Shown: positions 4,194 through 54,993 of the stretch, piece by piece
Layout: the number at the start of each line of letters is the position of its first letter
Position numbering within the stretch: the first letter of the stretch is position 1
Notes under the pieces: generated by a model
Told to the model about the DNA's origin: nothing
Databases searched by the model: none
Seen by the model: only the letters and a program-made list of their open reading frames with translations
Position numbers and translations under genes: made by a program
Assembly (NCBI GenBank): GCA_947496375.1
Contig: CANMCY010000003.1
Location: 11,568 to 75,567, forward strand
From: Flavobacteriales bacterium
GTDB lineage: Bacteria > Bacteroidota > Bacteroidia > NS11-12g > UBA955
Length of the DNA stretch: 64,000 nucleotides
Direction: 5' to 3'

Positions 4194-4283
4194 ATTTTTA
4201 AGGTTTTGTAGTAATAAGTTAACAAATAATCATGCCAAATGATGGCATTATGGATTTTACCCCTAAATGCACATAAATGGCCT

Positions 4284-4291
4284 TAAATTTG
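4284..4291 (+). promoter_or_regulatory. Candidate Bacteroidetes -7 promoter box TAAATTTG
   Basis: Exact match to TAnnTTTG, 29 nt upstream of the ATG at 4321. Confidence 0.4.
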
Positions 4292-4320
4292 CAGTAGCAA
4301 TCATTAGTAAAATTAACGTT

Positions 4321-4737: not shown

Positions 4738-4756
4738 TAATCTAGAAAACAATTCG

Positions 4757-4764
4757 TATTTTTG
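4757..4764 (+). promoter_or_regulatory. Candidate -7 promoter box TATTTTTG
   Basis: Exact TAnnTTTG match, 14 nt upstream of the ATG at 4779. Confidence 0.4.
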
Positions 4765-4778
4765 TCATAACCAACGCT

Positions 4779-10057: not shown

Positions 10058-10087
10058 CCGTTTTTCCTTGCTAATTTGCAATCGGAT

Positions 10088-11630: not shown

Positions 11631-11638
11631 TAATTTTG
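11631..11638 (+). promoter_or_regulatory. Candidate -7 promoter box TAATTTTG
   Basis: Exact TAnnTTTG match, 24 nt upstream of the ATG at 11663. Confidence 0.4.
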
Positions 11639-11662
11639 ACCTCGATTCCATAAACCTATTTT

Positions 11663-13057: not shown

Positions 13058-13116
13058 ATCTGTCCAAAGAATTGAACGTGTTAACAAGCCGAAAACACGT
13101 TACTTATCGCGTTGGG

Positions 13117-13124
13117 TACTTTTG
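13117..13124 (+). promoter_or_regulatory. Candidate -7 promoter box TACTTTTG
   Basis: Exact TAnnTTTG match, only 5 nt upstream of the ATG at 13130 (near-leaderless geometry). Confidence 0.4.
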
Positions 13125-13129
13125 TGTGA

Positions 13130-32913: not shown

Positions 32914-33063
32914 AATGTTGTTTTTCCTAGTTTGGGAAGCCTCAAAAATATTGTTTTTGAAGCAAATTACCGCATTTTCTGTGTTATTTTTTCTTTTCAT
33001 ATACGGGTTGAATTCTATCATTTTCTCATTTTTAATGTTTACGCTCGTCCTTTTTTTCCTGTG

Positions 33064-34119
33064 TTATCGGTTAAGAAGTATAGATTTTGAAAAGACCACT
33101 GCAGACTTTGCTGAGGGTGTTTTGTAGGTTATAAAAACCTTATATGTACCTGACATACAATCTATTGAGGCACATTTTCCATTCCAGCGCTGCAAAGGAT
33201 TATTGCTTACAAACACCTGCTTACCATAGCGATCTGTTACTATCTGGTTAAATTGGGTCACTTCAGGCAGGGTGATGATGAGTTCATCATTAATTCCATC
33301 CCCATTGGGTGTAAATACATCCGGCACACTCAAGCCCGGGTGGCGCTGACGAACCGACACCTTACAAATGCCTGAATCCATACAATTTGCAGATCTAAAC
33401 ACCATTGCTTTCACAACATATTCTGCATTTTCATCAGCATATACATGATGGGAAGGATTTCCGGATCCGATCTCCCCGTCTCCAAAATTCCATGAGCAAT
33501 ATGCACCTGCCGGTGCGCCATCCAACGAAAACGTCCAGCTATTATCGATGACAGCAACTGCTGCACTCACTTTCAGACTTCTGCCACAAGGCGCGGCACT
33601 TACCATGCCGTGGTCTTCTATCACCAATCGGCGGGATTCTGTCCCGGACAGCTTCCCTCCGGATTGATTTTCCTCCTGTTTTGCAGTGGATTGACTAACA
33701 ACTGAGCCTTCTGATCCGACCTGAGAAACTGCCGCTGATTCAGCAGGATGTGTATAATCACCGGGCTGTACCGTTGCACCGCGCTGATTGGCATTGAATA
33801 CCGCTTTATCCGAAGCGGTCTTTGGCGCAGCTTCTGTTGCGGGATATTTTGTTTGGTTCTCCGCTATGGCGGGTATCTGCGGCTGATCAGCGGTTACCGC
33901 CTTGTTGGTCGGCAAATTTATCACCACCGCTGTTACTCCCAATCCCGCAACTGCCACCCATGTCCACATTGATTTAAAAATGGCCGTAAAAACCCCGTTT
34001 GAGACAGTAGGGCTAAGTCCGGCAGAAACTGACTCCCATACACCCGGAGGCGGGGTGATACCGCTGTCTTTCAGACCGCTGCGAAAAATATCGTCTATGG
34101 AATTTCGTTCGTTTGCCAT
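33064..34119 (-). CDS. Membrane-anchored anti-sigma-like protein carrying a PKD module and a CHU_C (type-B T9SS) C-terminal domain
   Basis: It starts 3 nt after the ECF sigma gene. The N-terminus MANERNSIDDIFRSGLKDSGITPPPGVWESVSAGL is followed by one TM helix (WTWVAVAGLGVTAVVINL) and a low-complexity linker. Then come a PKD motif (CSWNFGDGEIGSG) and CHU_C (VPDVFTPNGDGINDELI...RWNGK...GTYKVFITY...SILLNR). Confidence 0.7.
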   Translation of the reverse strand: MANERNSIDDIFRSGLKDSGITPPPGVWESVSAGLSPTVSNGVFTAIFKSMWTWVAVAGLGVTAVVINLPTNKAVTADQPQIPAIAENQTKYPATEAAPKTASDKAVFNANQRGATVQPGDYTHPAESAAVSQVGSEGSVVSQSTAKQEENQSGGKLSGTESRRLVIEDHGMVSAAPCGRSLKVSAAVAVIDNSWTFSLDGAPAGAYCSWNFGDGEIGSGNPSHHVYADENAEYVVKAMVFRSANCMDSGICKVSVRQRHPGLSVPDVFTPNGDGINDELIITLPEVTQFNQIVTDRYGKQVFVSNNPLQRWNGKCASIDCMSGTYKVFITYKTPSAKSAVVFSKSILLNR

Positions 34120-34122
34120 GCT

Positions 34123-34668
34123 TTAACGCTGATGGGTTAATTTAATTTGCAACATCTTTCTTGCCTTGAACAGCTGAGTCTTACTGGTGTTCTCACTAAT
34201 GCCCATCAATTCTGCAATTTGACCGTGGTTATATCCTTCAATGGCATAAAGATTAAACACTGTTCGGTAACCTACCGGTAAGCTTTGCAATAGGGCGAGT
34301 AAATCTTTCATGGCCAGCTGAGGATAAACTGTATCATCTGCGCTGATTTCGACATGTTGATCAAGCTCATCGGCAAATGGCTCTTTTTTCAATTTCTTAA
34401 TAAAATCCAAACAGGTGGTTACGGCTATGCGCTTACTCCAGCCCTCAAAAGAGCCCTGAAATCTGAAATTATTCAGACTTTCGAATAGCTTGATGAAGGA
34501 TTCCTGTAACATATCTTTGGCGTTATCTGGGTTTCCGCAATACCGCAGGCAAATGGCGTACATCACCGGTGCATACTTTTGATACAATGCCTGCTGGGAT
34601 TTGGCATTCCCATTCAAACAGGCCTTGACCAGCTCGCTCTCCGTGATGTCCGCATTCAATGATGCCAT
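34123..34668 (-). CDS. ECF-type RNA polymerase sigma-70 family factor
   Basis: Region 2 is YQKYAPVMYAICLRYCGNPDNAKDMLQESFIKLF. Region 4 HTH is LPVGYRTVFNLYAIEGYNHGQIAELMGISENTSKTQLFKARKML. Confidence 0.85.
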   Translation of the reverse strand: MASLNADITESELVKACLNGNAKSQQALYQKYAPVMYAICLRYCGNPDNAKDMLQESFIKLFESLNNFRFQGSFEGWSKRIAVTTCLDFIKKLKKEPFADELDQHVEISADDTVYPQLAMKDLLALLQSLPVGYRTVFNLYAIEGYNHGQIAELMGISENTSKTQLFKARKMLQIKLTHQR

Positions 34669-36637: not shown

Positions 36638-37048
36638 TTAAGCGGCAGTATATGTGCGTATCTTTTCTGCTACTGCTTCTAATTCTTCCGTTGTAGGACT
36701 CATTTTGGACCTGGTGAAATTGATATCCCCCACTTCGTTCATGGGTACCAGGTGTATGTGTGCATGCGGAACCTCAAGACCGATAACAGCTATACCTACT
36801 CGCTTGCAGGGGATGGCTTGTTTTAACCCCTTCGCCACTTGCTGTGCAAACAACCACAAATCCTGATATTCCTCTGCATTCAAATCAAAAATATAATCCA
36901 CTTCCTTTTTTGGAATGACCAGAACATGTCCGGGTAACAGTGGCATTACATCCAAAAATGCCAGAAAATTATCATTTTCGGCGACTTTATAACTCGGTAT
37001 ATCACCGGAAACGATGCGGCTGAAAATACTGGGCATATTACAGGCCAA
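36638..37048 (-). CDS. HIT-family (histidine triad) nucleotide hydrolase
   Basis: IFSRIVSGDIPSYKV...PGHVLVIPK...VPHAHIHLVP (H-x-H-x-H-x-x triad). Confidence 0.85.
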   Translation of the reverse strand: MACNMPSIFSRIVSGDIPSYKVAENDNFLAFLDVMPLLPGHVLVIPKKEVDYIFDLNAEEYQDLWLFAQQVAKGLKQAIPCKRVGIAVIGLEVPHAHIHLVPMNEVGDINFTRSKMSPTTEELEAVAEKIRTYTAA

Positions 37049-37511
37049 TATCCAGTATTTCGAGCTTTACTATTCCTGCCGGAACGGTAATTTGAACCAC
37101 TTCCCCTTTGGACTTACCCAACAGACCCGCTCCAATAGCGCTTTTTATGCTGATTTTATTTTCCTTCAGATTGGCTTCCGTTTCGCTTACCAGCTGATAT
37201 ACTGCCTCTTTACCTACATTGTGGTTCAGTACTTTCACTTTGCAAAGTATAGACACCTTGCTGGTGTCCAACTGCGAACTGTCAATAACCCGGGCATTGG
37301 CAATCAGGGTTTCCATCTGACGAATCTTGTCTTCGAGGTGCCCTTGGGCTTCCTTGGCAGCATCATACTCGGCATTCTCACTCAAATCACCTTTATCTCT
37401 GGCTTCTGCAATCGCCTGTGTAATTCTCGTTCTTTCTTCTGTCTTCAAAAAATGCAGTTCCTGCTTGATTTTTTCAAGTCCGTCTTTGGTAAAATATTGA
37501 ATTTCGCTCAT
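37038..37511 (-). CDS. greA: Transcription elongation factor GreA
   Basis: MSEIQYFTKDGLEKIKQELHFLKTEERTRITQAIAEARDKGDLSENAEYDAAKEAQ is the coiled-coil finger. The C-terminal FKBP-like domain ends ...IVKLEILDIGL. The start is placed at ATG 37511. Confidence 0.9.
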   Translation of the reverse strand: MSEIQYFTKDGLEKIKQELHFLKTEERTRITQAIAEARDKGDLSENAEYDAAKEAQGHLEDKIRQMETLIANARVIDSSQLDTSKVSILCKVKVLNHNVGKEAVYQLVSETEANLKENKISIKSAIGAGLLGKSKGEVVQITVPAGIVKLEILDIGL

Positions 37512-37524
37512 TGGATTTGTTATT

Positions 37525-37561
37525 AAAAAAAGGTTGCACCCATGTTTTCCAAAGGTGCAAC
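37525..37561 (-). terminator. Intrinsic-terminator-like hairpin between the PorV-like gene and greA
   Basis: The minus strand reads GTTGCACC-tttggaaaacatg-GGTGCAAC-C-TTTTTTT. The 8-bp stem is at 37554-37561 / 37533-37540, the loop is 13 nt, and the T7 run ends 13 nt before the greA ATG. Confidence 0.5.
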
Positions 37562-37565
37562 ACTG

Positions 37566-37573
37566 CAAAGTTA
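37566..37573 (-). promoter_or_regulatory. Candidate -7 promoter box (TAACTTTG on the minus strand)
   Basis: The plus strand reads CAAAGTTA. The box lies 21 nt after the PorV-like stop and immediately upstream of the hairpin, 54 nt upstream of the greA ATG. Confidence 0.35.
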
Positions 37574-37594: not shown

Positions 37595-38698
37595 TTAATC
37601 GTCTCCGCCGCCGAGCCCAATTCTTAGACCAAAAGAGTGGGTACCATCAAATGGATTGGTGGCACGGTAGCTATAATCGAGAGAGATTATATTGGACTTG
37701 CTCTTAATATCGTAACTCAGGCCGCCGCAAAGACCGGTGTAGGCACTTGTCCTATTTTCCTCGTCGAATGCGCCCTCCTGGTGAACAAACGCGGTTCTAA
37801 CCGTAATAAAGTTCTTGTAGCTGTATTCCAGGCCCAGTGTAGTCTGGTTAGCAGAGAAGGCATGGTTTGTGAATCCAAATCCAACGGTAAGTCTGTTGTT
37901 GTATGCATCAGGATCACTATCCAGTCTAAAATCGTAGGAACCACTGATATTCAACAGGGAAGGCAATTTGATTTTGTCAACTTTAGGTTGCATGGTTTTG
38001 GAAAAGTCACCATTGGTAATGATGGCTTTGTAGCTAAGACCATCCCCCTGATGACGCATATCAGGTCCGATATTTTTCATGGAAACGCCAAACTTCACAT
38101 CATTCTGCTTCAATTTATTGGCTGTAGGCCTTAGGGTTGTTGTGTACTGCACACCTGCATCAAGACTCATACCCATCGCTCTTGCATCTGGAATGCCCTC
38201 ATTGACTGCCCTTACCACCAATCCGGCAGAAATATTGTTACTAAATGACTTACTGTACGCAAGACCAATATTGGTCATATTAACCCGATAGGTGCCAATT
38301 CCACCATAAGGATTGGATTCTGTAGTAATTTCTATGGGCTTAATACCAAACTGCATTACGCTGATTCCAAAGGTACCCTTATCTCCGTCTTCACCCATTT
38401 TTTGGCTGAAACCAAAGTTGTTGATTGCAATTCCTGACCCTACCAGCCATTGAGTTCTGTGAAAGGCCATTTCGGTTCTGCTGGCACTTCTGTCAAGTCC
38501 TGCGGCATTCATATACATGGCTTCCACTCCGGTGATTCCACCGCCGTTTGCCCAACCCCAGCCACTGCTGCGGGCCCAGCCGTTGATGGACAGTTGCATG
38601 GCTCCCGCCTGCCCTTGTCTTTCGGGATTGCCCGCATGCAATGAGGAAATACCTGTAAGCATGCCTATGCTGATTGCTGCTATAATTTGAGTTTTCAC
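37595..38698 (-). CDS. PorV/PorQ-family (FadL-like) outer-membrane beta-barrel protein
   Basis: Signal peptide ISIGMLTGISSLHA. The N-terminal block GQAGAMQLSINGWARSSGWGWANGGGITGVEAMYMNAAGL follows the G-x-AGA-x-x-L-x-I-x-x-x-AR...NPAGL pattern I associate with PorV/PorQ barrels. The C-terminus is Gly/aromatic-rich (HSFGLRIGLGGGDD). The start is 21 nt after the upstream gene's stop. Confidence 0.6.
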   Translation of the reverse strand: MKTQIIAAISIGMLTGISSLHAGNPERQGQAGAMQLSINGWARSSGWGWANGGGITGVEAMYMNAAGLDRSASRTEMAFHRTQWLVGSGIAINNFGFSQKMGEDGDKGTFGISVMQFGIKPIEITTESNPYGGIGTYRVNMTNIGLAYSKSFSNNISAGLVVRAVNEGIPDARAMGMSLDAGVQYTTTLRPTANKLKQNDVKFGVSMKNIGPDMRHQGDGLSYKAIITNGDFSKTMQPKVDKIKLPSLLNISGSYDFRLDSDPDAYNNRLTVGFGFTNHAFSANQTTLGLEYSYKNFITVRTAFVHQEGAFDEENRTSAYTGLCGGLSYDIKSKSNIISLDYSYRATNPFDGTHSFGLRIGLGGGDD

Positions 38699-38719
38699 TG
38701 TGTTTTTCTTTTAAATTTT

Positions 38720-41700
38720 TTAATAAGTATCCAAATCAATGGCATGCATAATACCATACCAGCGAACAATTTTTTCTCCAAGTCCGGGTGCCTTCACATG
38801 GATAAGGTACAATCCGCTGGAAATGGGTACATTGCTAGCATTTTTCAAATCCCACTCAAAGAAGGTTTTTTCATCTGCCTTGCTGATTTTACGGATGAAG
38901 TTACCCGCCATATCATAAATGGTGATGGTACATGTAGGAGGCAGATTGGTGATTTTAACCCTGGTGTCAATCGGGCTGTTTTCGTATTCACTGTATGCCC
39001 TGTATGGGTTTGGCACTACATTCACCAGATCCAGGCTCTTTTTACCTACTTCTTTACTGATGGTTGGAGCAATATCCGCCGAATTAAAGCTATACATGGG
39101 GCGCGTATTATTGAGGGTACTGCCCGTGTTGAAAGCTGTGTATGCTTTCTGAATATTGATTTTAAACTTCACATCAGTAGGAGGTACACCATTCGTCATG
39201 CTGTAGCCGGCTGTCATGTAGGTAGGAATTACCCACATCGTCTGACTGAGGAATCGGCGTTTTTCAAGCGTTCCGGCAGGGACGTTGGCCAATCCTGTGC
39301 GGAAACGTGCAAAGTTTGCATCGTCCTCACCAAAATAACGATCTCCCTTGATGGCGCGGTTTGGCATAGATAAACCTGTGCCGAACACATAGATGAACTG
39401 CTTACCACCCAGGGCAGGATAATTTCCATTATCATTATAAACCTTATCAGTAGGATTCCAAATCATATCACGACCGTTTTCACCGGCCAGGTAACTGTCT
39501 TCACTAAACGCGATATTCAAGCGCTCACCGGTTTCCATATTAATTGCATAACCCGGGAACCAGCTAAGCCCTGTACTTCCGGACTGTGGGTTCAGATTTC
39601 TGTCTCTGGAAGTACCTGCGCGCATGGAGAACTTGTAGATAGATCCTTCATTGCTATTACGAACTTCATCATCCGACATTTCCAATACTGCGCAGCGGGT
39701 CCATTTGCTTCTGTCCTTGGTTATCACCAGTTCTATACTGGCCACTTCCGCCATTGGGTTATCTGAGGTACCATTACTGGTCCATGCGAAGCCATAGGTA
39801 TTGCGACCATTGCTTGGATTGAATGCTGCTCTGGCTGCCAGGGCATAAGGAGCAATTCGGCCATTCCAGATTCTTTCGTATGCCTGTCCAGGATCCAGAG
39901 CCACACCGCCGGCATCGGTAAAGTCATGCAAATGCGCATCGAAAGTACCGCCGCGTCCATTGGTTCCGGAGCGTATCCAGTTCTGCCAAAGCGCCCCACT
40001 GGTGGCTGTGCTCTGAGCATCGTTGTCAATCACTGCTGTCAGCCATTGTTTACCATTGTCCTCCCATTCCACTGACCAGGAAATCATGCTGTTAGAAGGA
40101 TCGGCTTCTGCATTTTCTCCCGGGTTTTTCACCTGGTTAATCTCAATACTCAGCCCCCAGTCGGCAAGACTTACAGCGGGGTTGGCATTATTGAAAGCCC
40201 GGTATTTTCCAGGTGATGGGTACTCACTGCGACGCCCCTGCAGCGATTCAAATTTAGTTCCGATGGTAGTATCCGCTGCAATCGTATCGCCGCTGGTTTT
40301 ATTCACCAGAACCCAATAAGAATTAGCCGTCATAGAATCACGTAGATTGGCACTTAAACTGGCTGTGCGCTCTTTGAAGTACAATTCAAACTGAGCGTTA
40401 GGAACTTTGAGCGGGTCAATTACTTTCACCGCAACCGGGCCCATTCCACCCATGTATGTTGGGGTATTACTAATACCATCTTTCATAATTTGATCGATGG
40501 TCTCTTTGGTAAATTCAAGTACGTTTCCGCCATTGCCCCTACCTTCAATTCGGGTCAGTTTAGGGCCGCTTCCATACTTGCTGTTCAATTCAGTACCAAA
40601 GTTTTCAGGCTCGGTTTTGTGGGGCACGGCGCGGTAAACCTGGATATTTCTGCGACCCGCAAGAAACTGATTTGGATCGGCCTGCAAGGGATCATCCGCA
40701 ATAATCGAATACGAAAGAACCAGATAATAATACGGTTTAAAGTCTACCAAGTCCGTATTTGAACCCGTTGCAAATAGGTCGGTTTTAATACTATAGCTAT
40801 GCTGTACGCCCTTATCAGCACCATCTACTTTTTCAACGGGGATGAGGGTAGCCAGTTTTGGGTCATAAACTTTATTAATAATCTGGGCTCTGTTATTCTT
40901 GATATCACACTGAAACAGCAGACGTGCTTTATCAATATTATCAAGATCACCCGTATTTACGGTACCATCTTTCAACTGATAAATAAGATACCCTTCAAAC
41001 TTATAGGTTTTAGTTTCGTTGTTAGCGTCTTTGTACGTTTCCTGATACGCTTCCACTTTATCCGAACCTGTATTCAGCATCTTCAGAACCAGTTCCTGAT
41101 TTAATTCCTGAATTTCTACGTCAGGAGCGTTGGGTCCGTCCAATATTTTAAAGTTGTTGTTAAAGAGCGTCTGTGCTTTATCCGAAGCTAATTGCAGCAA
41201 ACGCAGAGAACCGGTACCAAGACAAGGAGAGCCTGCACCACCGCTGGTGGTTCTTGCCCATACTACGCCCACGGTAATGCGCTGCACTTGTCCACGCTTC
41301 AATTCAAAAGGACCTGTACTTTGTATAAACCGACGGTCACCGGGTTTATTGCCGCTTGATTTTTCGTCCCAGCAACTTGACAAATAGTCCGGGTCAGTTG
41401 CAGCGGGAAACATGAATTTTGCAGGCTGACTTCCACCAAATCCGGTACCACCGCGCGTTACGGTCTGTCCACCCAGCCATTTACCCTGTAGCAGGTTATA
41501 GAATTCAGGCGCCAGATTAGGGTTACCTTTGATAGGATCCTGATCGTTGTTGTAGTACATGAAGTGGCTCAGTCCCATTTGGTTTCCGGCAGTATCAGTT
41601 GGTCCTTCAAAATAATCCACTCCCACAGAAGGCGGATTTAAACCATAACCCAAAACACCTTCATCTTCGTCATCTCCATTGTAGCAATATCCAAGACTAC

Positions 41701-42673
41701 GGTTTACATCACAACCCACGTAGTCATCCGCATAGTTACCCAAATCCGCGTCCACCCACTGACCCATGTAACAATCATTCAGGGTCGTAAAACCACGGTT
41801 GATAATTTTGGTTGTGTAGAAGGTCATGTTGTTGACTTCATCATTGGTGGCAAAGGCAAATCCAGTAGTCTGACATTCAACACCAATGGGCTGTCCCTGG
41901 GTTTCAGAGTGAATATTTCCCCGATCATTGAAAACCCACCAAATAAACATATCGGGTTGCTTATCAACACCGTTATCGCTCACAGGGCGTCTTTCGTCCA
42001 ACACAGGATGTTCTCCCAGATCGGGCTCATAAACTCCATCATTGTCAATATCTTTAAATGGTGCCAGATAGCGAGACTCATTACCGGTTTTGGTAGCGCG
42101 GTCTCTTCCGGCAGGCCATTCGCGAATGTCAACGGATTGGGATACATATTTGCTCTCTTCAAATTGTTCCAATTCATCACGAGTTACTTTCCACATGCGG
42201 TTGTAATTCTTACAACGCACGGGATCGGTAGAGGCGGTAGTTGTATCCAGTGGACCGGGCCAGAAGTCGGAACCACGCTGACGGTAGGTCATAGCAGCCA
42301 GTTTCAGACTTCCTCCATTGTCTTTACCACCAATCCAGATAGCACCGGAGAACAGGGCATGCTTACGAACAGCATTAGGGTCTGTTACTTTTGGTATTTC
42401 ATACTTAGGGTTATTCAGATCCCACCACATATCACCGCCATTCAGCAGTTTGGTTCTAACATTGTTTATGTCAAGATCCGCACTGGTAGAGGCGGGTTCG
42501 CAGGTATTAGCGAACATTATGAGGCGCTGATCATCGTTTTGGGCAGGTTTCACCCTTGAAGTACCCAAAACTGGTCTGGCATGGGAAGCCAAAGACATCA
42601 TGGCAGCCGCAATGAACAAAACACTTTTCATTTGATTGGATTTCATTAGATTTCTGTAATTTAAGTAGAGCAT
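38720..42673 (-). CDS. 1317-aa secreted protein of unknown function with a T9SS-type-A-like / FlgD-Ig-like C-terminal domain
   Basis: Signal peptide MKSVLFIAAAMMSLASHA. The start is ambiguous among ATGs at 42673, 42646 and 42631. The first shares one nt with the upstream stop (TAATG). A DxDxDG calcium-type motif is present (KDIDNDGVYEPD). The C-terminal ~100 aa are VVPNPYRAYSEYENSPIDTRVKITNLPPTCTITIYDMAGNFIRKI...WDLKNASNVPISSGLYLIHVKA... Confidence 0.8.
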   Translation of the reverse strand: MLYLNYRNLMKSNQMKSVLFIAAAMMSLASHARPVLGTSRVKPAQNDDQRLIMFANTCEPASTSADLDINNVRTKLLNGGDMWWDLNNPKYEIPKVTDPNAVRKHALFSGAIWIGGKDNGGSLKLAAMTYRQRGSDFWPGPLDTTTASTDPVRCKNYNRMWKVTRDELEQFEESKYVSQSVDIREWPAGRDRATKTGNESRYLAPFKDIDNDGVYEPDLGEHPVLDERRPVSDNGVDKQPDMFIWWVFNDRGNIHSETQGQPIGVECQTTGFAFATNDEVNNMTFYTTKIINRGFTTLNDCYMGQWVDADLGNYADDYVGCDVNRSLGYCYNGDDEDEGVLGYGLNPPSVGVDYFEGPTDTAGNQMGLSHFMYYNNDQDPIKGNPNLAPEFYNLLQGKWLGGQTVTRGGTGFGGSQPAKFMFPAATDPDYLSSCWDEKSSGNKPGDRRFIQSTGPFELKRGQVQRITVGVVWARTTSGGAGSPCLGTGSLRLLQLASDKAQTLFNNNFKILDGPNAPDVEIQELNQELVLKMLNTGSDKVEAYQETYKDANNETKTYKFEGYLIYQLKDGTVNTGDLDNIDKARLLFQCDIKNNRAQIINKVYDPKLATLIPVEKVDGADKGVQHSYSIKTDLFATGSNTDLVDFKPYYYLVLSYSIIADDPLQADPNQFLAGRRNIQVYRAVPHKTEPENFGTELNSKYGSGPKLTRIEGRGNGGNVLEFTKETIDQIMKDGISNTPTYMGGMGPVAVKVIDPLKVPNAQFELYFKERTASLSANLRDSMTANSYWVLVNKTSGDTIAADTTIGTKFESLQGRRSEYPSPGKYRAFNNANPAVSLADWGLSIEINQVKNPGENAEADPSNSMISWSVEWEDNGKQWLTAVIDNDAQSTATSGALWQNWIRSGTNGRGGTFDAHLHDFTDAGGVALDPGQAYERIWNGRIAPYALAARAAFNPSNGRNTYGFAWTSNGTSDNPMAEVASIELVITKDRSKWTRCAVLEMSDDEVRNSNEGSIYKFSMRAGTSRDRNLNPQSGSTGLSWFPGYAINMETGERLNIAFSEDSYLAGENGRDMIWNPTDKVYNDNGNYPALGGKQFIYVFGTGLSMPNRAIKGDRYFGEDDANFARFRTGLANVPAGTLEKRRFLSQTMWVIPTYMTAGYSMTNGVPPTDVKFKINIQKAYTAFNTGSTLNNTRPMYSFNSADIAPTISKEVGKKSLDLVNVVPNPYRAYSEYENSPIDTRVKITNLPPTCTITIYDMAGNFIRKISKADEKTFFEWDLKNASNVPISSGLYLIHVKAPGLGEKIVRWYGIMHAIDLDTY

Positions 42674-45600
42674 TAATTAAAATTCATACGTATACCGATA
42701 CGGGCATTTCTGGGAGCACCAAAGTTGCCTGTTTGAGAATTAAGGAGGATTTTGTACAGATCGGTGTAGCTTTGAGCATCAATCTGGTTGCGCACCAGCA
42801 GCTGTCCGGCCTGAGAATTGAGGAAACCGTCATCCATGGGCTGGCCTGTGAATGGATATACACCCAGTACATTTTGGGTATTGAGTACATTCTGAACCCA
42901 AACAAACACCGTCATAATCAGGGGATTTTCTTTGCCCGAACGTTTCAGGGCAAACCCTTTTTGTATATTGATATCAAGTGTTTGCTGCCATGGCAATCTG
43001 GCACCGAACGGAACACCCTTAATCTGGGCTCTGTCGGTTGCACCGATTTGCACGGGACGTGTTGTTGGAGTGTAGGGTCCACCGCTGTAGGCATTAGCAA
43101 TAATGTTGAAGCTGGTGAACTTGAAAATCTCCTTACCCCCAACGATAGGGCCTTTGTAGAGACTCTTTTTGGTCTTTGGATCTTTTCCTCCGGCCCATTC
43201 CCATGTAGCAGATAACTTAATGTTGTGGCGAATATCCAGTTCACCCAAAGGAATTACATTTCTCAGATTGGGCTGGTTACTTGCAATCAAAGCTGCCTGA
43301 GAATTGATATTGGAACCGGTCCCATCGGCAAACTGCAGCATGTAGCTGGCAAGCAGACTCAAAGGACCAATCTCATTCATTACAAAATTACCACGGAAAC
43401 CGGTGATGGTTGCAAAATCGATGTTACGGAAAGTGTTGTAGGTAACAGGGAAGCCCTGGGCAATCTGATACAAACCGAAATCGCGGCGAATTTCCGAATA
43501 GGAGGCAGACAATTCCAGACCTTTATTCTTCTTACGGCCAAAAATCTGCTTGTATCCCACCTCATAATCTGTTTTAACCCGGCTCTTGAGGTCACCATTA
43601 GAAATGGTGGCTCCCTGACGGTTTTTCAGATAGTACAGTTCGTCAATAGTAAGGAAAGATGCACCATCATTGGGTCTTTGAGCCAAAACATCATAGCTTA
43701 CGTAGAACGTTTTACGTCCGGATTCCAGCGGGAAACTGAACCAGATACGGGGAAGGAAATTCAGAGCAGGCGTAAAGTCGCGTAAAGCTTCTTTGCCCAG
43801 CACAAGACTGTCGGTGTTAGTGGCTACCAGATAAGGCGCTATGCGTCCGTTTGAAGTTTGGTTAGCCAGAAATTCAGGGTTGCGCTGTTCGCTGCCATCG
43901 GCATTATACCAGCGGTCACCGTTGCGGTATCCCACAATTTTGGTTGGAGATTTCAAATCATTTACATACACCGCATAGTTGCTTCCGATGTTATCGGGAT
44001 GGTTGATATCCAAACCGTTGATTTGCTTCACTTCTGCTGCTGTGCGAATGGGATGCAGGGTGTATGGGTCTTTTAGTACAAACTGGTTAGCATCGTAGCT
44101 TTCCATACGCAATCCGAGACGGAAAACCAGGTCTTTGAACTGGAACTGATCCTGCAACCAGGCGGCCATGTATACCGGTCTGAATGCACCAATGGTGCGC
44201 ATGGTAGGATTATTTAAAAACTCTTCAATGGCGGGCTTTCTATACACTTTATTGCCCATGTGGTCATAACCAAAATAACCTACATATCCGTTACCATTGT
44301 TCAGGAGTTCATCCGCAGTGAACATATCTATTGAGAAATCACCGGGTTTGTAGCTGTTAATGTCCACGAATGTGCGCTCGTTAACGGGGTTACCGTACAC
44401 ATCGCGGGCACCCTGTGAAATCAACTTGTTACGGAAGGAGCGATCAAAGTTGCTCTGATCTGCATAATTTATGAGGCGGTTATAACGAACTGTATCAGTG
44501 AATACCCCATTGGCATCATAGCTCAGAATGGGATTATTCCTGTCCAGTTCACTGATATGGCGGTTCATTAACTGCCCCATCAGGATCCACAATCCATTGG
44601 CTCCGAGGTTGTAATTGCGTGAAATTTGCTGTTCGTAATAAATACCAGCCTGCAGGTCATGGGGGGTACGTTCACGGCCACCCACGGTTTTGGGTTTTAC
44701 CTGCATCTGACCTACCGCGAACAATGAAATACGCTGACTTTGGCTTTTGCCATAGTTGCTGGTAATACCGCCCGGTGTACCCCATAGGGAATACACGCTA
44801 TTGGGGTTAAATCCATTCATCAGACCTTGGCTTTGAATCACCTGAGATGAATTTCTGACATTAAATCCACGGCCTGCGTAGTAATCATATACATTTTGGG
44901 TGTAGCGGGCACGCACCGGATTCAGGTTGCTGGGCGTGAATGTCATCAATGTATCGGCATAACCCACCAGCTCCCAATAGTTTCTTAACTGCACAGTATT
45001 TCCGAACTGATCGGTAACGGTACGTGGTTCTTTGTTTGGATTTTGCTGGGCATCATAGTTGGCGTACTGAAAAACCGGCATGGGATAGGACTGGAAGGTA
45101 CCTACATAACCATAATCAAAAATATTGTTGAGGTGGTTAGCGTCGCGCCCCAGCCCATTCACGTCCTGGTATTCCAGACGAGCGGTATAGTAGGCACTCT
45201 TAATACTGCTATTTTTATCCACCTTAAAGTTTTGGGTAAATTGCAAGTAGCTACGGAAGGTCGCATTATCGCCCCGGGCATTGTTCTTGTAATTCATGAT
45301 GGAATTACTGGCTGCAATACCCTGACTGTAGAAGTAGGAGGCATAGCCAGTCACCATGATTTGGTTGTTGGGTCTGAATTCCAGCTTGCCATACATATTA
45401 CCCTGATACAACGGCGAATTGGGTCTGGCTTTTAAACGTTCAAAATCGCTTTCACGCAGATATGCGCCCCTGTGTACAAACCCGTTAGGGGTAAATACCA
45501 GCGGATTCTCTTCCATTTCGCGCAGTTTGTCTTCTTTTACTACATACACACCGGTGCGGGTAGGGTTTGGGTCTTTGAAATAGCCGATGTTACCGTTCAA

Positions 45601-46425
45601 AACAAAACCAAGCTTTACCAACTCTTTGGTGGTACCCGTTTCATCTTTATACTTCTTTTTCCAGATGGGTCCGGAAACATATCCTTCCAACGTGTTGTAT
45701 CCAAAAGGATCCAATCCTTGTGAAGTAACCGCTTCCATGGCTGTCACCAATTTGGCTGTTGCGCCCCGGGAAGTGTAATTGAAAGCACCCCCGGTGAGGT
45801 CACCGTACATGGCCTGAATACCGCCAATATTGGCAGCAATGGCTTCTGTTCCCAGGGTGGGGATAGCACCACCACCAATGGCACGCATACCATCAATGAA
45901 TGTTCCGTTGCCATCCGCGCGGGTACCCCTAACAGAAATACCCTGCCTTGTTGCAACAATGGCTGAGTTGGTGGAAACTACGGCATTTACGCCACGCTGG
46001 CTACCCTGCAAAAGCTGCTTGTTGGATACACCGCGTTCATTTTTCATGAGGTCTACCGGGGTTTTCTTGGCAACACCGGTAATAACCAGCGTACCCATTC
46101 CCTGGGTCATGGCTACTTCCTGCTGATCATTCAAACCCACAGTCAGCGTGAGTTCTCTTTTTACAGGATTGAAGCCCCCTTTTTCCACTTCCATTTCATA
46201 GGTACCGGGATCCAGGGTCTGGAACACGCAATATCCATCACTGTCTGTGGTGTCGGTTTTGGCCAGAATTTCATTTTTTGACATCTTGATAACGGCACCT
46301 GAAACCGGTGCGCCCTTGAATGTCACCTTCACACGAAAATCTGCAAAGCTGGTCTGTGCAACCGCTGCAGCAGCGCTGAGACTGAGGATGGTTACAAAGA
46401 GAAACTTAAGTATAGTTCTGTTCAT
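42673..46425 (-). CDS. Oversized TonB-dependent-receptor-like outer-membrane barrel with CarboxypepD_reg-like N-domain (SusC-like architecture, no SusD partner)
   Basis: Signal peptide LSLSAAAAVAQ. The CarboxypepD_reg-like domain is FRVKVTFKGAPVSGAVIKMSKNEILAKTDTTDSDGYCVFQTLDPGTYEMEVEKGGF. A plug-like block follows (GISVRGTRADGNGTFIDGMRA), then ~1000 aa of barrel ending ARIGIRMNFN. Confidence 0.8.
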   Translation of the reverse strand: MNRTILKFLFVTILSLSAAAAVAQTSFADFRVKVTFKGAPVSGAVIKMSKNEILAKTDTTDSDGYCVFQTLDPGTYEMEVEKGGFNPVKRELTLTVGLNDQQEVAMTQGMGTLVITGVAKKTPVDLMKNERGVSNKQLLQGSQRGVNAVVSTNSAIVATRQGISVRGTRADGNGTFIDGMRAIGGGAIPTLGTEAIAANIGGIQAMYGDLTGGAFNYTSRGATAKLVTAMEAVTSQGLDPFGYNTLEGYVSGPIWKKKYKDETGTTKELVKLGFVLNGNIGYFKDPNPTRTGVYVVKEDKLREMEENPLVFTPNGFVHRGAYLRESDFERLKARPNSPLYQGNMYGKLEFRPNNQIMVTGYASYFYSQGIAASNSIMNYKNNARGDNATFRSYLQFTQNFKVDKNSSIKSAYYTARLEYQDVNGLGRDANHLNNIFDYGYVGTFQSYPMPVFQYANYDAQQNPNKEPRTVTDQFGNTVQLRNYWELVGYADTLMTFTPSNLNPVRARYTQNVYDYYAGRGFNVRNSSQVIQSQGLMNGFNPNSVYSLWGTPGGITSNYGKSQSQRISLFAVGQMQVKPKTVGGRERTPHDLQAGIYYEQQISRNYNLGANGLWILMGQLMNRHISELDRNNPILSYDANGVFTDTVRYNRLINYADQSNFDRSFRNKLISQGARDVYGNPVNERTFVDINSYKPGDFSIDMFTADELLNNGNGYVGYFGYDHMGNKVYRKPAIEEFLNNPTMRTIGAFRPVYMAAWLQDQFQFKDLVFRLGLRMESYDANQFVLKDPYTLHPIRTAAEVKQINGLDINHPDNIGSNYAVYVNDLKSPTKIVGYRNGDRWYNADGSEQRNPEFLANQTSNGRIAPYLVATNTDSLVLGKEALRDFTPALNFLPRIWFSFPLESGRKTFYVSYDVLAQRPNDGASFLTIDELYYLKNRQGATISNGDLKSRVKTDYEVGYKQIFGRKKNKGLELSASYSEIRRDFGLYQIAQGFPVTYNTFRNIDFATITGFRGNFVMNEIGPLSLLASYMLQFADGTGSNINSQAALIASNQPNLRNVIPLGELDIRHNIKLSATWEWAGGKDPKTKKSLYKGPIVGGKEIFKFTSFNIIANAYSGGPYTPTTRPVQIGATDRAQIKGVPFGARLPWQQTLDINIQKGFALKRSGKENPLIMTVFVWVQNVLNTQNVLGVYPFTGQPMDDGFLNSQAGQLLVRNQIDAQSYTDLYKILLNSQTGNFGAPRNARIGIRMNFN

Positions 46426-46614
46426 AGGTCTGTTTTTACTTTAGTCGGTAAAAGCCGTTTTTATATCGGTCTTTCGTTTGCAAGTTTACCCAAAAATCAA
46501 CGATTTAACAAACCCTTAATGAAAGGTGGCAAAAACCTGCTGATTTTGTGACAAAAAGATTGATTTGTAATGCGAAAGCAACAAACCTGTGACAAAAGTT
46601 AAGTCTGATTTACA

Positions 46615-49968: not shown

Positions 49969-52059
49969 TTATTTCAGCAAATCCTGCATCATCAGAATCG
50001 CCTGATCAAGCCATGCATCTTTGGCATACATCTTCAGCCATTCCTTGCGCTGGGCTTCGCGAACAGCATCACCTTTCACCGATTCCATATCAGCTGCAAG
50101 CGCATCTATTTTTCTTTCAATGGGCTTGTAAGCGCTGTCAGAATAAAGTTTTTCCTCGTCCTTCAATGCTTTTTGCTGTGCAGCATACTTTTTCAGGTTT
50201 AGACTCCAGATATAGCTATCACGCATGGCGGCCAGGCTTTTGGCCCGTTTCTGAACATTGCTAAAGTGGGCAGACGATGCGATTCTGGATTTGGCGGACT
50301 GCGCTGTAGCTTCAAATCTAGTGGCATGAGGCGCTGAATAAGCGGTGTAGGTTGCCGGCTTAATTTTATCATAAGCCAAATGATGTTTCATTTCCCTTTC
50401 TCCCTGAGGGATTCCGTCATAAATATCCGGAATAATCACATCCGGTGTTACTCCATTCAATTGGGTGGTACCCCCATTGATCCGATAAAATTTCTGTATG
50501 GTTACCTTCAGCTGTCCGAACCCTTTGGGGAAATCTGATGAGCTTCCGCCGCCAATGGGCACAAAGGTCTGTACAGTGCCTTTTCCAAAGGTACTTTTTG
50601 AGCCCACAATAAGGGCACGTTTATAATCCTGCATGGCTGCAGCCAGAATCTCGCTGGCAGAGGCGCTGTAGGCGTTTGTGAGTATCAGCAATGGACCGTC
50701 ATATACAATGTTAGGATCGGGGTCGCCGGGTGCATCTACCATTCCCCTGGGTTCGCGCACCTGCACTATGGGTCCTTCCTTGATAAACAAACCGCCCATA
50801 TCAATGGCATCTGCCAAAGAACCACCTCCATTATTGCGCAGGTCCAGCATAATTCCCTGAGCACCGGCATCCTGCAACCTCAACAACTCCATATACACAT
50901 CCTGTGAGGAGTGACGGCCCCTACCCTTTTCACTAAAGTCTGCATAAAAACTCGGCAGCTGAATAATACCTATCTTTTTACCTTCAAACTCAATGATGGC
51001 GCTGCGAGCATAACTCTCTTCTATCACCACCACTTCACGTATAATGGGTATAATCTTGATGCTTCCATCGGGTTTTTTCACGGTCAGGCGCACCTCTGTT
51101 CCTTTTTTGCCCCGAATGAGCTGTATGGCATCATCCAGTTTCATATCCACCACATCCACGGGCTCGGCGGAGCCCTGTGCTACTTTAATGATAAGGTCTC
51201 CGGCTTTCAATTCACCCTGCCTGTAGCTGGCACTGCCGGGCACTATTCTTTCAACTTTTATATAACCATCGCGTTCTGTGAGTGTAGCACCAATCCCTTC
51301 CAGCTTGCCGGTCATGCTGATATCAAAATTGGCCTTATCCTCCGGTGGATAGTAGTTGGTGTGCGGATCATACAATTCCGTGATGGCGTTTACAAAAAAA
51401 GAAATCTTATCACGCTTATCCATCTTACGCCAGCGTTTAAACCAGTCAGTACAGAACTTACGCGTCTCTTGCCTTGCTTTTAACTCAAGGGTATCAAAAG
51501 GTTTATTGGCGGTTTGAGCAGAATCTTTCGCGATACGGGCGGCCTCTTGTTTGCGATAGAGCCGATCTACCGTCTGGTACTGCAGCCAGAGTGTCCAATC
51601 ATCTTTCAGAGAGTTAACATTGGGCTGGTATTTTTCTGTGTTTTCACGAACGGTGTAGGTTCCGCTATTTTCATAATTAAAGGGCTTGTCCAGGGTCTTA
51701 TTGAAATGTTCCTCCAAAATAACCAATCGGTTCATCAATGTATTCCAGGCAGAATCGAAGAAATCGAATCGCCCGGCTTTTATCTGATCGTCCAGCGAAT
51801 ACTCGTATTTCTGCAATTTTTTGATGTCTTCCTGGGTGAAAAAATGCTTATCATCATCCAATTTCTCCAAGACATTATCATACAATTTTTTAGAAAAATC
51901 GTCATTTATTTTAACAGGAGCATAGTGTTTTTCTGACAATATGCCGGTAACCCTTACCAGCAAAGAATCTCCGGCGGTAAATTTTTTATTGCTGCAAAAA
52001 ACCAGCAATGTCAGGGCAGTACCTACGGTGAAAAAGGAAATCCAGGATTTTATTCTCAT
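49969..52059 (-). CDS. S41-family carboxy-terminal processing (tail-specific) protease
   Basis: PDZ region (GDLIIKV) and the S41 catalytic blocks LDLRNNGGGSLADAI and NAYSASASEILAAAMQDY..ALIVG. Confidence 0.9.
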   Translation of the reverse strand: MRIKSWISFFTVGTALTLLVFCSNKKFTAGDSLLVRVTGILSEKHYAPVKINDDFSKKLYDNVLEKLDDDKHFFTQEDIKKLQKYEYSLDDQIKAGRFDFFDSAWNTLMNRLVILEEHFNKTLDKPFNYENSGTYTVRENTEKYQPNVNSLKDDWTLWLQYQTVDRLYRKQEAARIAKDSAQTANKPFDTLELKARQETRKFCTDWFKRWRKMDKRDKISFFVNAITELYDPHTNYYPPEDKANFDISMTGKLEGIGATLTERDGYIKVERIVPGSASYRQGELKAGDLIIKVAQGSAEPVDVVDMKLDDAIQLIRGKKGTEVRLTVKKPDGSIKIIPIIREVVVIEESYARSAIIEFEGKKIGIIQLPSFYADFSEKGRGRHSSQDVYMELLRLQDAGAQGIMLDLRNNGGGSLADAIDMGGLFIKEGPIVQVREPRGMVDAPGDPDPNIVYDGPLLILTNAYSASASEILAAAMQDYKRALIVGSKSTFGKGTVQTFVPIGGGSSSDFPKGFGQLKVTIQKFYRINGGTTQLNGVTPDVIIPDIYDGIPQGEREMKHHLAYDKIKPATYTAYSAPHATRFEATAQSAKSRIASSAHFSNVQKRAKSLAAMRDSYIWSLNLKKYAAQQKALKDEEKLYSDSAYKPIERKIDALAADMESVKGDAVREAQRKEWLKMYAKDAWLDQAILMMQDLLK

Positions 52060-52071
52060 TAAATTAGTTTG

Positions 52072-53835
52072 TTACTTTTTGTTTAGGCCCAATACATTAA
52101 CTCCCTGCTCGAATATCAGATCTACCGGTATTCCTGCTTTTTCAATACTCACCAAATCTGCTTTCAGGGTTTCGGATATAACGGCGCGGGTGCTCAACAT
52201 ATTGGATACACCGGCTTTATTTCCATCGCCTTGCAAGGTCAGTAACTCGGCGGCCAGATTGCTGATTATCTTTTTCATTTCGGGCACATTCACGAGGTAT
52301 TTGCCATTCTTTTGACGAGAAACAGCACCTTTGGAGAGCAAGGTATTGAAGATTATCATGTTGGCTTTGCCATGGGCGCTGGCAGCGCCAAAACGCACAC
52401 TGCGGAAGGTTCCGGCCACAAAAGTCACATAGAAATCATCGATATTGCCGGTCAGTTCGCCTGTTTCCAGCAGTTTGGTGACCATATACAACCCCAAAAC
52501 ATCTGCTTTACATTCTTCAATGGGTGAAAAATCTGCCCCCAGGGCCTCTCTGACAGTTGCTTTCCCATCTACTGTGTTCTTTACACCCAAACCATGGGCA
52601 ACCTCATGAAACATGACATTGTTGAAAAATGCATCGAAGTTCACTTTTGTCGCCTGCGTTTCAACCAGCATTAAACCGGCAATGGGTTTTACCATATTGT
52701 CAAATTTGGCCTGCATCACATTTTTCAACTGAGAGCGCCGTGTGCCATATTCCTGTTGCAACTTCTCATCATTGGGCAAATTCACGGCAATGGTTTTACT
52801 GCCTGCATTGTTGTGGCCTGCATAATAAATCACATCAAACACGGCGAGTGAGCTTCCGGGTTTGGGACCGTCGGGCGCTCCAGGGAGGGGTGCCTCTATC
52901 ACCACCATCGCGTCTGCATTACCTGCAGGCATGGATGACTGGGGTGAATTCATGGCCAGCGTTGGCTTATAGGCGGCATCTACCGGCAAACTTTGCTGAA
53001 GGGAAGGCAACAGAGAAACATACTTTTCCAGTTTCTGCGTCCAGGTCATATCCCTAACCATTACATAGGATTCAAATGCTGTTCTAATTCCCTGAAATTC
53101 ATCTTCATAATTTTCAATTGGGCCAATGATGATATCCAGACGGTTATTTAGTAAACCCAACCAGTGAATATCACTGCTATTGTATTCACCCTGCATTAAA
53201 CCATTGCATCGCTCAATCAAAAAATTGGCAAACCGCTCATCTTCCTGGCGAATGGTATTGGCTGCCAGGGAAAGGTGTTTCACCATTTCAATCATGTTTT
53301 CCCGATAAGCAGTATGGTAGGGCTCTGAAAATAATTTTCCAGATTCATCGCGCTTAACCACGCTGTAGGGATTATTCTTCTGAGGATTGTTCCATTGATC
53401 CCATTCTGCCTGGGTAATATTGGCCGGATAAAAACCGGCACCTTTGGGCTTTTCGCCCATGCCCTGCACAAAGGGTACATTATTATTGAGGCGGTCCCAA
53501 GGACCATAATTGAGTTCAATAAATCGCTTAAGGGTATCGTTTTTAACGCGATCAAGCAGCAGTTTTTTATCGCCCCATGCCTGTTGCCAGAATATTTCAT
53601 CTGCCACTTTGGCGGCATCAATCAGATGACGCAGGGTTTGTTTTTCAACCTCTGACAGGGAAGAGAGATCGGTGGTTAAGGGCAACGTTTTGTAAGATGC
53701 CAGGTTGCCGGCTACGGGGTAGCCTTTAACCGGAACAAGCAGCGAAACCGGAGACTTACCGTTATTGCTCTTTTGAGCCCATGCACCAAGGGTAAAAAAA
53801 GCTACCGATAAAAGGAGAAAACTGTTTTTCATCAT
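52072..53835 (-). CDS. Secreted zinc metallopeptidase, DPP-III (M49)-like
   Basis: Signal peptide MMKNSFLLLSVAFFTLGAWAQ. The zinc site is FHEVAHGLG with a second motif IEECKADVLG. The start is placed at ATG 53835. It ends 12 nt upstream of the S41 gene start, so an operon is likely. Confidence 0.7.
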   Translation of the reverse strand: MMKNSFLLLSVAFFTLGAWAQKSNNGKSPVSLLVPVKGYPVAGNLASYKTLPLTTDLSSLSEVEKQTLRHLIDAAKVADEIFWQQAWGDKKLLLDRVKNDTLKRFIELNYGPWDRLNNNVPFVQGMGEKPKGAGFYPANITQAEWDQWNNPQKNNPYSVVKRDESGKLFSEPYHTAYRENMIEMVKHLSLAANTIRQEDERFANFLIERCNGLMQGEYNSSDIHWLGLLNNRLDIIIGPIENYEDEFQGIRTAFESYVMVRDMTWTQKLEKYVSLLPSLQQSLPVDAAYKPTLAMNSPQSSMPAGNADAMVVIEAPLPGAPDGPKPGSSLAVFDVIYYAGHNNAGSKTIAVNLPNDEKLQQEYGTRRSQLKNVMQAKFDNMVKPIAGLMLVETQATKVNFDAFFNNVMFHEVAHGLGVKNTVDGKATVREALGADFSPIEECKADVLGLYMVTKLLETGELTGNIDDFYVTFVAGTFRSVRFGAASAHGKANMIIFNTLLSKGAVSRQKNGKYLVNVPEMKKIISNLAAELLTLQGDGNKAGVSNMLSTRAVISETLKADLVSIEKAGIPVDLIFEQGVNVLGLNKK

Positions 53836-53944
53836 CAATGAACTTTCAAATATCGTGCAAATTATTGCGGTTCGAAATCCCGTCTGCATTTTTTGGTTAA
53901 TTGGGTATATTTATTCTATAAAAACCAATAAGCAGCAGTTTTGT

Positions 53945-53952
53945 TAGCTTTG
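53945..53952 (+). promoter_or_regulatory. Candidate -7 promoter box TAGCTTTG
   Basis: Exact TAnnTTTG match, 4 nt upstream of the ATG at 53957. Confidence 0.35.
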
Positions 53953-53956
53953 CGGT

Positions 53957-54955: not shown

Positions 54956-54980
54956 AACCCGGTATTCCGTTCTGTTTTAC

Positions 54981-54988
54981 TACATTTG
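54981..54988 (+). promoter_or_regulatory. Candidate -7 promoter box TACATTTG
   Basis: Exact TAnnTTTG match, 5 nt upstream of the ATG at 54994. Confidence 0.35.
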
Positions 54989-54993
54989 CCAAT

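Follow-up and report, generated by a model that had tools for sequence, protein, structure and literature searches.

Two arrangements at the bacterial cell surface are already established separately, namely TonB-dependent transporters (TBDTs) with surface partners and type IX secretion system (T9SS) cargo proteins that are held by PorV-like barrels. Among the latter, the C-terminal domains (CTDs) of PorU and PorZ are left uncleaved and kept bound to PorV and PorQ, respectively, and it has been hypothesized that cognate PorV-like barrels shield the CTDs of their cargo from cleavage (PMC10202324). Here we describe a locus that brings together parts of both arrangements, a triad of adjacent genes (genes 1, 2 and 3, denoted g1, g2 and g3; Table 1) within a 64,000-nucleotide stretch of DNA, hereafter the window, from a Flavobacteriales bacterium of the Bacteroidota (GenBank assembly GCA_947496375.1, contig CANMCY010000003.1, positions 11,568 to 75,567). 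Each part falls into a class already known (TBDT, PorV-family barrel and T9SS-type tail); the conserved combination and the body of the g2 product are undescribed, and no description of an operon joining a TBDT, a PorV-like barrel and a protein of about 1,300 residues was found in the open-access literature. The reading that we prefer, with a probability of roughly 45%, is that the three products form one surface complex in which g2, exported by the T9SS, is docked on g3 and acts with g1 in capture and import.

The triad resembles the SusC/SusD (RagA/RagB) systems in that g1 encodes a TonB-dependent barrel that has large loops, a plug and, at the N-terminus, a CarboxypepD_reg domain, in that a gene for a large surface partner directly follows the barrel gene, and in the presumed logic of capture followed by import. 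The partners differ, however: SusD is an alpha-helical lipoprotein, whereas the 1317-residue g2 protein is beta-rich, lacks a lipobox and carries a T9SS-type CTD. The triad also contains a third gene, for a PorV-family barrel, and g1 has no SusC/RagA match in NCBIfam at E <= 0.1. Given the latter result and the lack of a SusD-family gene downstream, the SusC/RagA subfamily is ruled out for g1, so that of the SusC-like character ascribed to this protein in an earlier note on this DNA the general layout stands and the subfamily membership does not. A SusD-like lid is likewise ruled out for g2, which has no SusD match in Pfam, about 9% helix and no lipobox.

The likeness to the PorU-PorV and PorZ-PorQ pairs of Porphyromonas gingivalis lies in the adjacency, within the triad, of genes for a cargo protein and a barrel of the PorV/PorQ family; in those pairs the CTD of the secreted protein is kept and docked on a 14-strand barrel of this family (PMC10202324). 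In addition, the CTD of g2 is most similar to that of PorZ, and g3 passes the model of the PorV/PorQ family. Unlike PorU, however, g2 has no C25 sortase domain, and it shows no detectable likeness to the body of PorZ; g3 fails the ortholog models of PorV, PorQ and PorV2, and the operon includes a TBDT. The PorU model NF033707 has no match in the g2 of the window and matches a single g2 ortholog, at 16 bits and within the CTD. A PorU sortase or a PorZ was therefore rejected as the identity of g2, the PorZ match being confined to the CTD, and a PorU-PorV pair, which has an equal gene order and similar sizes, was ruled out by the lack of any C25 or PorU match in the window.

Three further systems invite comparison. 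In the SprB-SprF system of Flavobacterium johnsoniae, characterized by a type-B CTD and barrels of the PorP/SprF group, the gene for a cargo-specific PorV-like barrel also lies directly downstream of a very large cargo gene, but the CTD of g2 is type-A-like (the type-B model CHU_C matches it at E 0.16) and g3 belongs to the PorV/PorQ family, with no PorP/SprF match reported. Oar, a TBDT of Myxococcus xanthus, is required for the secretion of PopC (PMC6434023). It has the same domain order as g1 (CarboxypepD_reg, plug and long barrel) and likewise ties a TBDT to a secreted protein, but comes from another phylum and has neither a T9SS nor a PorV-like partner. The gene for PopC is not known to adjoin oar in a comparable operon. 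Finally, the barrel assembly machinery (BAM) of Bacteroidota contains BamG, a FadL-like barrel, and BamH, a surface lipoprotein, both known from solved structures (PMC12611786, PMC12578637). Here, too, a 14-strand barrel of the FadL superfamily holds a large extracellular protein and the pair is conserved across the phylum; moreover, in two related loci (L003 and L004; loci from related genomes are numbered with the prefix L) ompH (skp) and murI are found within a few genes of the triad, and bamA is also present in L003. However, BamH is a lipoprotein and no TBDT takes part in BAM. BamG and BamH were rejected as identities of g3 and g2, the profiles of the two families having retrieved from the PDB PorV alone and nothing, respectively, in a copy in which the BamG and BamH chains were unconfirmed. 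Taken at the level of orthologs, the triad belongs to none of the SusC/SusD, PorZ-PorQ, PorU-PorV and SprB-SprF families.

That the three genes belong together is indicated by their synteny, which was counted over the 79 GTDB species loci recovered with g2. The order g1-g2-g3 recurs across these loci and both spacers cluster around 20 nucleotides (nt). g1 was found in 71 loci and g3 in 74, and seven of the eight loci that miss g1, like four of the five that miss g3, end at a contig edge. The sole true exception, L077, is a second, orphan copy of g2 with 47% identity (9878-13708; OZ244977.1, second locus) on the complete chromosome of a metagenome-assembled genome (MAG) that carries the full set at L075; it adjoins genes for a histidine kinase and an ion channel and has neither g1 nor g3 alongside. 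L003 and L004 (48-55% identity) keep this order as well, as do four more distant loci, L084-L087 (37-42% identity), so that the loss of synteny in related genomes, which the earlier note had named as an observation that would speak against its proposal, was not encountered in any of these sets. The flanking 2-hydroxyacid dehydrogenase and greA/HIT genes are collinear too in most loci, and general collinearity thus contributes to the conservation of the triad; in L087, however, both flanks are changed, and in L084 the downstream one, with the triad intact in both.

The family of g2 is large. The first homology search gave 5801 matches, and a single-sequence query of a library clustered at 50% identity retrieved 7382 clusters at E <= 1e-3 and 2457 at E <= 1e-30; relatives are present in at least 590 GTDB species representatives, and full-length members extend down to 37% identity. 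The organism names among the family members looked up are all those of Bacteroidota MAGs, labelled Flavobacteriales, Chitinophagales, Sphingobacteriales or Bacteroidia, and the search for a cultured or characterised carrier in the cluster look-ups, the homology matches and 80 genome titles returned names of MAGs only. Such a distribution would account for the lack of a Pfam or NCBIfam model over the g2 body.

The mean pairwise p-distance over 32 genomes is 0.43 for g2 and 0.50 for both g1 and g3, compared with 0.37 for GreA and 0.57 for the 2-hydroxyacid dehydrogenase among the flanking proteins; by this measure, g2 is under strong purifying selection. The distance matrices of g1, g2 and g3 correlate with each other at 0.95-0.98 and with those of the flanks at 0.74-0.91, and partial correlations of 0.76-0.89 persist after removal of the flank signal. 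As support for a joint function these correlations are weak because longer proteins give less noisy distances.

The assignment of g1 rests on several lines of comparison. In the sequence of the window, Pfam recognizes the CarboxypepD_reg domain alone (PF13620, 40.5 bits against a cut-off of 32.3) and neither Plug (PF07715) nor TonB_dep_Rec (PF00593); both of these models were found in full-length homologs with 30-35% identity, and Plug/TonB_dep_Rec matches also occur in the orthologs of L084, L086 and L087. The profile of the g1 family retrieves from the PDB the plug of PirA (5fp2, E 3.9e-6) as well as PqqU and YncD, and the family alignment contains the conserved plug motifs IRGxR..DG..YxIDG...GG.PAxYGD.TGG. 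The plug-like block suspected in the earlier note is thus real by alignment and profile, though it falls under Pfam detection in the window sequence. A V/I-rich strand (TLVITG in the window, EVIVT in relatives) precedes the plug at the place expected of a TonB box and is putatively TonB-box-like.

The AlphaFold2 model of residues 108-1250 has a mean predicted local distance difference test (pLDDT) of 88.6 and a predicted template-modelling (TM) score (pTM) of 0.84. The best 50 PDB matches of this model in Foldseek are all TBDTs, with E values down to 2e-25; the top matches FptA, PhuR, PfeA, FhuA and FusA have E values of about 1e-25 and target TM scores of 0.6-0.76, and TbpA and HasR are also among the matches. 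By fold and by family, g1 is accordingly a genuine TBDT with a plug and a presumed 22-strand barrel. Compared with the transporters that it matches, it has about 450 additional residues; these are located between barrel strands, and many of the invariant residues of the family fall within these loop insertions.

For the body of g2, no comparison with characterized proteins was productive. Neither the whole protein nor six pieces of it had a Pfam or NCBIfam match across the first ~1,230 residues, and no PDB chain was matched at E <= 1 by the single sequence or by a 50-member profile. In the structure model of residues 34-1233 (pLDDT 82.3, pTM 0.65), which is that of a multidomain protein, beta structure predominates and helix accounts for about 9%; the linker ahead of the CTD is modelled with low confidence (pLDDT <50 at model residues 1185-1200). 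In Foldseek this model gave weak partial matches alone (TM <= 0.24, root-mean-square deviation (rmsd) 10-15 A), in the PDB to beta-sandwich domains of glycoside hydrolase (GH) families 116 and 94 and allied enzymes, and in the viral structure library BFVD, the search of which yielded nothing useful, to FN3-rich phage proteins. A glycoside hydrolase was considered and rejected for g2: the matches to GH116, GH94 and ExoMA2 are not taken as homology, given the low TM (<= 0.24), the high rmsd (>9 A) and the restriction to beta-sandwich parts, and the catalytic (alpha/alpha)6 barrel of GH116/GH94-type enzymes is not in the model. Hence g2 did not turn out to belong to a characterized enzyme family or to a SusD-like one, an outcome that the earlier note had named as speaking against its proposal, in any of the comparisons with Pfam, NCBIfam and the PDB or by the model. 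The DxDxDG motif to which that note drew attention does exist in g2 (DIDNDG) but is absent from the conserved consensus of the family, in which acidic clusters and GRGNGGN-type motifs are invariant.

Some relatives of g2 (P0307, P0451, P0511, P0264 and others) are 1,500-1,690 amino acids (aa) long and have added parts whose annotation is cadherin-like or Ig-like (PF17963) or else 'YCF48-related'; the conserved core of g2 therefore tolerates added surface modules.

Over the last ~85 residues, the CTD, g2 is similar to a T9SS type-A sorting domain, with the elements VVPNPY..., ...SGLY.IHV... and ...EKI.(K/R)W, an SGxY motif and a terminal K-rich strand, and ends in a near-invariant extra tail, WYG.M..IDLD.Y. 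The scores of the window protein are 20.3 bits with TIGR04183 (cut-off 23), 15.3-20.4 bits with PF18962 (cut-off 27) and 27.0 bits with FlgD_ig, equal to the cut-off of 27. TIGR04183 is passed by two of the seven g2 orthologs, P0018 (26.7) and P0015 (24.2), with the other five below. The PorZ model NF052228 matches the CTD region, and the CTD only, at E 2.4e-6 and 26 bits (cut-off 260), and in six of the seven orthologs the PorZ CTD (model positions ~665-750 of 757) gives a better match than does the generic type-A model. The fraction of majority residues is 0.74 in the CTD and about 0.64 in the body. Together these comparisons suggest a T9SS type-A-like domain that is nearest to the retained CTD of PorZ. 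Three type-B cargo proteins of the T9SS are encoded in the same window, and a T9SS is therefore expected in this organism.

The third protein scores 107.7 bits with the PorV/PorQ family model NF033709 (cut-off 90), and all 35 orthologs match this model at E <= 0.001, the best at 1.8e-43 (E values, not scores relative to the cut-off). The equivalog models give far lower scores: 48.9 bits for PorV (NF033710, cut-off 250), 32.5 bits for PorQ (NF033711, cut-off 220) and 27.3 bits for PorV2 (NF052325, cut-off 325). The PorV2 system of NCBIfam was accordingly rejected for g3 (27 bits against 325). The sole significant PDB match of the g3 family profile is PorV of F. johnsoniae (6h3i_F, E 7.9e-11), including the conserved N-terminal segment, and FadL-type transporters and BamG remained unmatched in this search. 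About equally far from PorV and PorQ, g3 is, on these scores, a separate branch of the PorV/PorQ family rather than an ortholog of PorV, PorQ or PorV2.

The layout of the triad is that of a single transcription unit (Table 1). One base of the g1 stop codon (TAA, 42675-42673) also belongs to the earliest ATG of g2 (42673-42671), as TAATG, but two further in-frame ATGs are present at 42646 (MKSNQMKSVLF...) and 42631. The spacer between g1 and g2 is mostly 19-31 nt among relatives, and a start at 42646, with a spacer of 26 nt rather than an overlap, is therefore more likely to be the true one; the spacer between g2 and g3 is 21 nt in the window. The terminator-like hairpin has an 8-bp GC-rich stem, GUUGCACC...GGUGCAAC, followed by U7. 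It folds with a free energy of -17.3 kcal/mol (z = -3.0), a value that none of 200 shuffles reaches, and it was not picked up by a simple terminator scan. The mechanical open reading frame (ORF) of greA (37038-37568) has a TTG start at 37568 that overlaps this hairpin; the ATG near 37511 (MSEIQYF...) is probably the real start. A 189-nt non-coding gap separates the 2-hydroxyacid dehydrogenase gene from g1 and holds TAAACTTG, with TTTG further upstream, a pair that by eye presumably resembles the -7/-33 motifs of Bacteroidota; a sigma-70 scan upstream of g1 gave nothing convincing, and a scan of the window with Rfam returned no RNA families. By eye, the N-termini of all three products resemble Sec type-I signal peptides, and that of g2 has no lipobox cysteine. 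Most of what the earlier note had said about the layout agrees with these results, that is, the three minus-strand ORFs of 1250, 1317 and 367 aa, the hairpin that closes the set, the Sec signal peptides, the shared base of TAATG and the 21-nt spacer; only the overlapping ATG of TAATG, which the note offered as a possible start of g2, is probably not the true one.

Table 1. Features of the g1-g2-g3 locus, with positions counted from the first nucleotide of the window.
Feature	Position	Strand	Description
Upstream intergenic region	46426..46614	minus	Probable operon promoter region
Gene 1 (g1)	42673-46425	minus	1250 aa; TonB-dependent transporter with oversized conserved extracellular loops
g1 CarboxypepD_reg domain	46105..46332	minus	Residues 32-107; Pfam PF13620
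g1 TonB-box-like strand (GTLVITG) and plug	45691..46092	minus	About residues 112-245
Gene 2 (g2)	38720-42673	minus	1317 aa; secreted, unknown fold family; probable true start 42646
g2 T9SS type-A-like CTD and conserved extra tail	38723..38971	minus	
Gene 3 (g3)	37595-38698	minus	367 aa; PorV/PorQ-family outer-membrane barrel; GTG start at 38698
Intrinsic-terminator-like hairpin and U7	about 37525-37564	minus	Between g3 and greA

From these parts, the following mechanism could be envisaged. The products of g1, g2 and g3 would all cross the inner membrane via Sec, and the T9SS would carry the g2 product over the outer membrane by virtue of the type-A-like CTD. The CTD would then stay uncleaved and docked on the dedicated g3 barrel, in the manner of PorU on PorV and PorZ on PorQ, and this docking would secure the beta-rich body of 1,230 residues to the cell surface with no lipid anchor. 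Placed over or beside the long conserved extracellular loops of g1, the body of g2 might capture, and perhaps process, a macromolecular or scarce substrate, which g1 would import with TonB energy. Overall, this would amount to a barrel with a surface partner in the style of SusC/SusD, in which parts of the T9SS deliver and anchor the partner in place of lipidation. In this scheme, we infer the export of g2 by the T9SS, the contacts among the three products and the direction of transport, and the retention of the CTD on g3 is suggested by analogy with PorU and PorZ.

The earlier note had arrived at a similar interpretation, of which the three-part architecture is supported, whereas the SusC/RagA subfamily of g1 and the TAATG start of g2 are not. 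Its idea of a private PorV paralogue for g2 gains support from the CTD, which shows no less conservation than the body and has the retained CTD of PorZ as its best match, and g3 is indeed, as the note had supposed, a barrel of the PorV/PorQ type and not a generic FadL transporter (107.7 bits with NF033709, PorV alone in the PDB). A bolder form of the proposal, in which the triad would represent a new class of machine, with a T9SS-exported g2 of new fold permanently docked on g3 through a retained, co-evolving CTD and in a stable ternary complex with g1, is possible but is held by us more tentatively than the complex as such.

Several observations weigh against a complex devoted to capture and import. 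Nothing points to a substrate, as g2 has no recognisable binding or catalytic domain in Pfam, NCBIfam or the PDB; the neighbours of the triad (greA, HIT, lgt, holB and 2-hydroxyacid dehydrogenase) are housekeeping rather than catabolic genes; the CTD of the window g2 scores under the curated cut-offs of TIGR04183 and PF18962; and one genome has an extra g2 paralogue with no barrel genes beside it. Furthermore, conservation as strong as that of g2 is unusual for a surface-exposed nutrient-binding protein and would be no less in keeping with a biogenesis or structural machine.

The main rival explanation is a module for surface biogenesis or attachment in which g2 and g3 would be an accessory pair akin to PorZ/PorQ or PorU/PorV that delivers, modifies or anchors surface material, such as lipopolysaccharide or glycan, a surface coat or further T9SS cargo, with g1 as a platform or an energised gate. 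The housekeeping level of conservation, the single copy in most genomes and the housekeeping neighbours, including ompH (skp) and murI in L003 and L004 and bamA in L003, are all compatible with such a role, as are the preference of six of seven orthologs for the PorZ CTD over the generic type-A model and the about equal distance of g3 from PorV and PorQ. However, g2 lacks a C25 peptidase domain, the match to NF033707 (16 bits) being limited to the CTD of one ortholog, and no likeness to the body of PorZ could be detected, with neither PorZ nor PorU in the Foldseek list from the PDB or in the PDB profile search. Furthermore, no known T9SS attachment complex includes a TBDT, and g1 keeps the plug and the TonB-box-like strand that are typical of importers. 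We therefore consider this explanation unlikely, although it is the one that deserves the most weight after the capture-and-import complex.

Somewhat less probable again is a set of the kind found in polysaccharide utilization loci, with g2 as a released enzyme. The g2 protein would be an ordinary T9SS cargo with a cleaved CTD that g3 just shuttles, and would degrade a polymer while free or loosely attached, leaving g1 to import the products, with no stable three-part complex. The type-A-like character of the CTD and the low-confidence linker in front of it are in line with cleavage; the fold matches of g2, weak but repeated, to the beta-sandwich N-domains of GH116, GH94 and GH65-type enzymes could hint at an enzyme, and the invariant acidic clusters and GRGNGGN-type motifs are such as might be found in an active or metal-binding site. 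Nevertheless, g2 has no recognisable catalytic domain and the (alpha/alpha)6 barrel is not in its model; a signal domain that is cleaved off is not expected to be more conserved than the mature protein, nor to bear an invariant extra tail; and a dedicated barrel gene would be needless, given that the general PorV serves ordinary type-A cargo.

The Oar precedent suggests another possibility, that g1 is an exporter that moves the g2 product across the outer membrane or inserts it there, with g3 as a receptor and the core T9SS uninvolved. A requirement for a TBDT in protein secretion is documented (PMC6434023), the layout of g1 is Oar-like, with CarboxypepD_reg, a plug and a long barrel of >1,000 residues, and g1 lies directly upstream of the putative cargo gene. 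However, a folded protein of 1,300 residues far exceeds the lumen of a 22-strand barrel, g2 has a T9SS-type domain in an organism that encodes other T9SS cargo, and the PorV-family partner points to the T9SS route, so that export through g1 seems quite improbable. The least probable explanation, with a very small chance of being correct, is that the three outer-membrane genes have no joint function and are adjacent through inherited gene order alone: the flanking greA and 2-hydroxyacid dehydrogenase genes are indeed syntenic in most loci, but the spacers of ~20 nt are kept across 37-90% identity, the triad is intact in L087 and L084 despite the changed flanks, and a common upstream region and a single terminator bracket exactly g1, g2 and g3.

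On the minus strand of the window, a gene for an extracytoplasmic function (ECF) sigma factor (34123-34668) is followed by those for a 351-aa CHU_C type-B protein (33064-34119) and an 1817-aa PKD/CHU_C protein (27568-33021); the same three-gene block also follows the triad region in L001, and it may be a sigma-controlled adhesin module. A large secreted protease of 1495 aa, thermolysin-like (M4), in which an FTP propeptide is combined with PKD domains and a CHU_C type-B domain, is encoded on the plus strand (4779-9266). By the operon lies a peptidase-rich stretch (49969-56178), where genes at 49969-52059, 52072-53889 and 54994-56178 encode an S41 tail-specific protease, an M49-like peptidase and a C1-like cysteine peptidase, respectively. 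Among the related loci, L001 has, a few kb upstream of the triad, a gene for a CarboxypepD_reg barrel of 798 aa with a 428-aa partner (1172-4934), and L080 has in a similar place a g1-like paralogue with CarboxypepD_reg (1253-4951). In L003 (594-5091) and L004 (2852-4873), two copies of ompH (skp) and murI lie directly upstream of the 2-hydroxyacid dehydrogenase gene and the triad, and bamA is additionally present in L003.

If the products of g1, g2 and g3 do form a stable ternary complex, it would be the first physical and functional link between the T9SS and the TonB system, and conservation at a near-housekeeping level would speak for a core role in the envelope or in uptake in these uncultured lineages of Bacteroidota. 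One complex of this kind would also reveal how Bacteroidota can fix a partner protein to a transporter without lipid, and would extend the principle of a CTD retained on a cognate barrel past the T9SS's own parts. It would further give a concrete point from which to test how the cell surface works in abundant freshwater and marine Bacteroidia.

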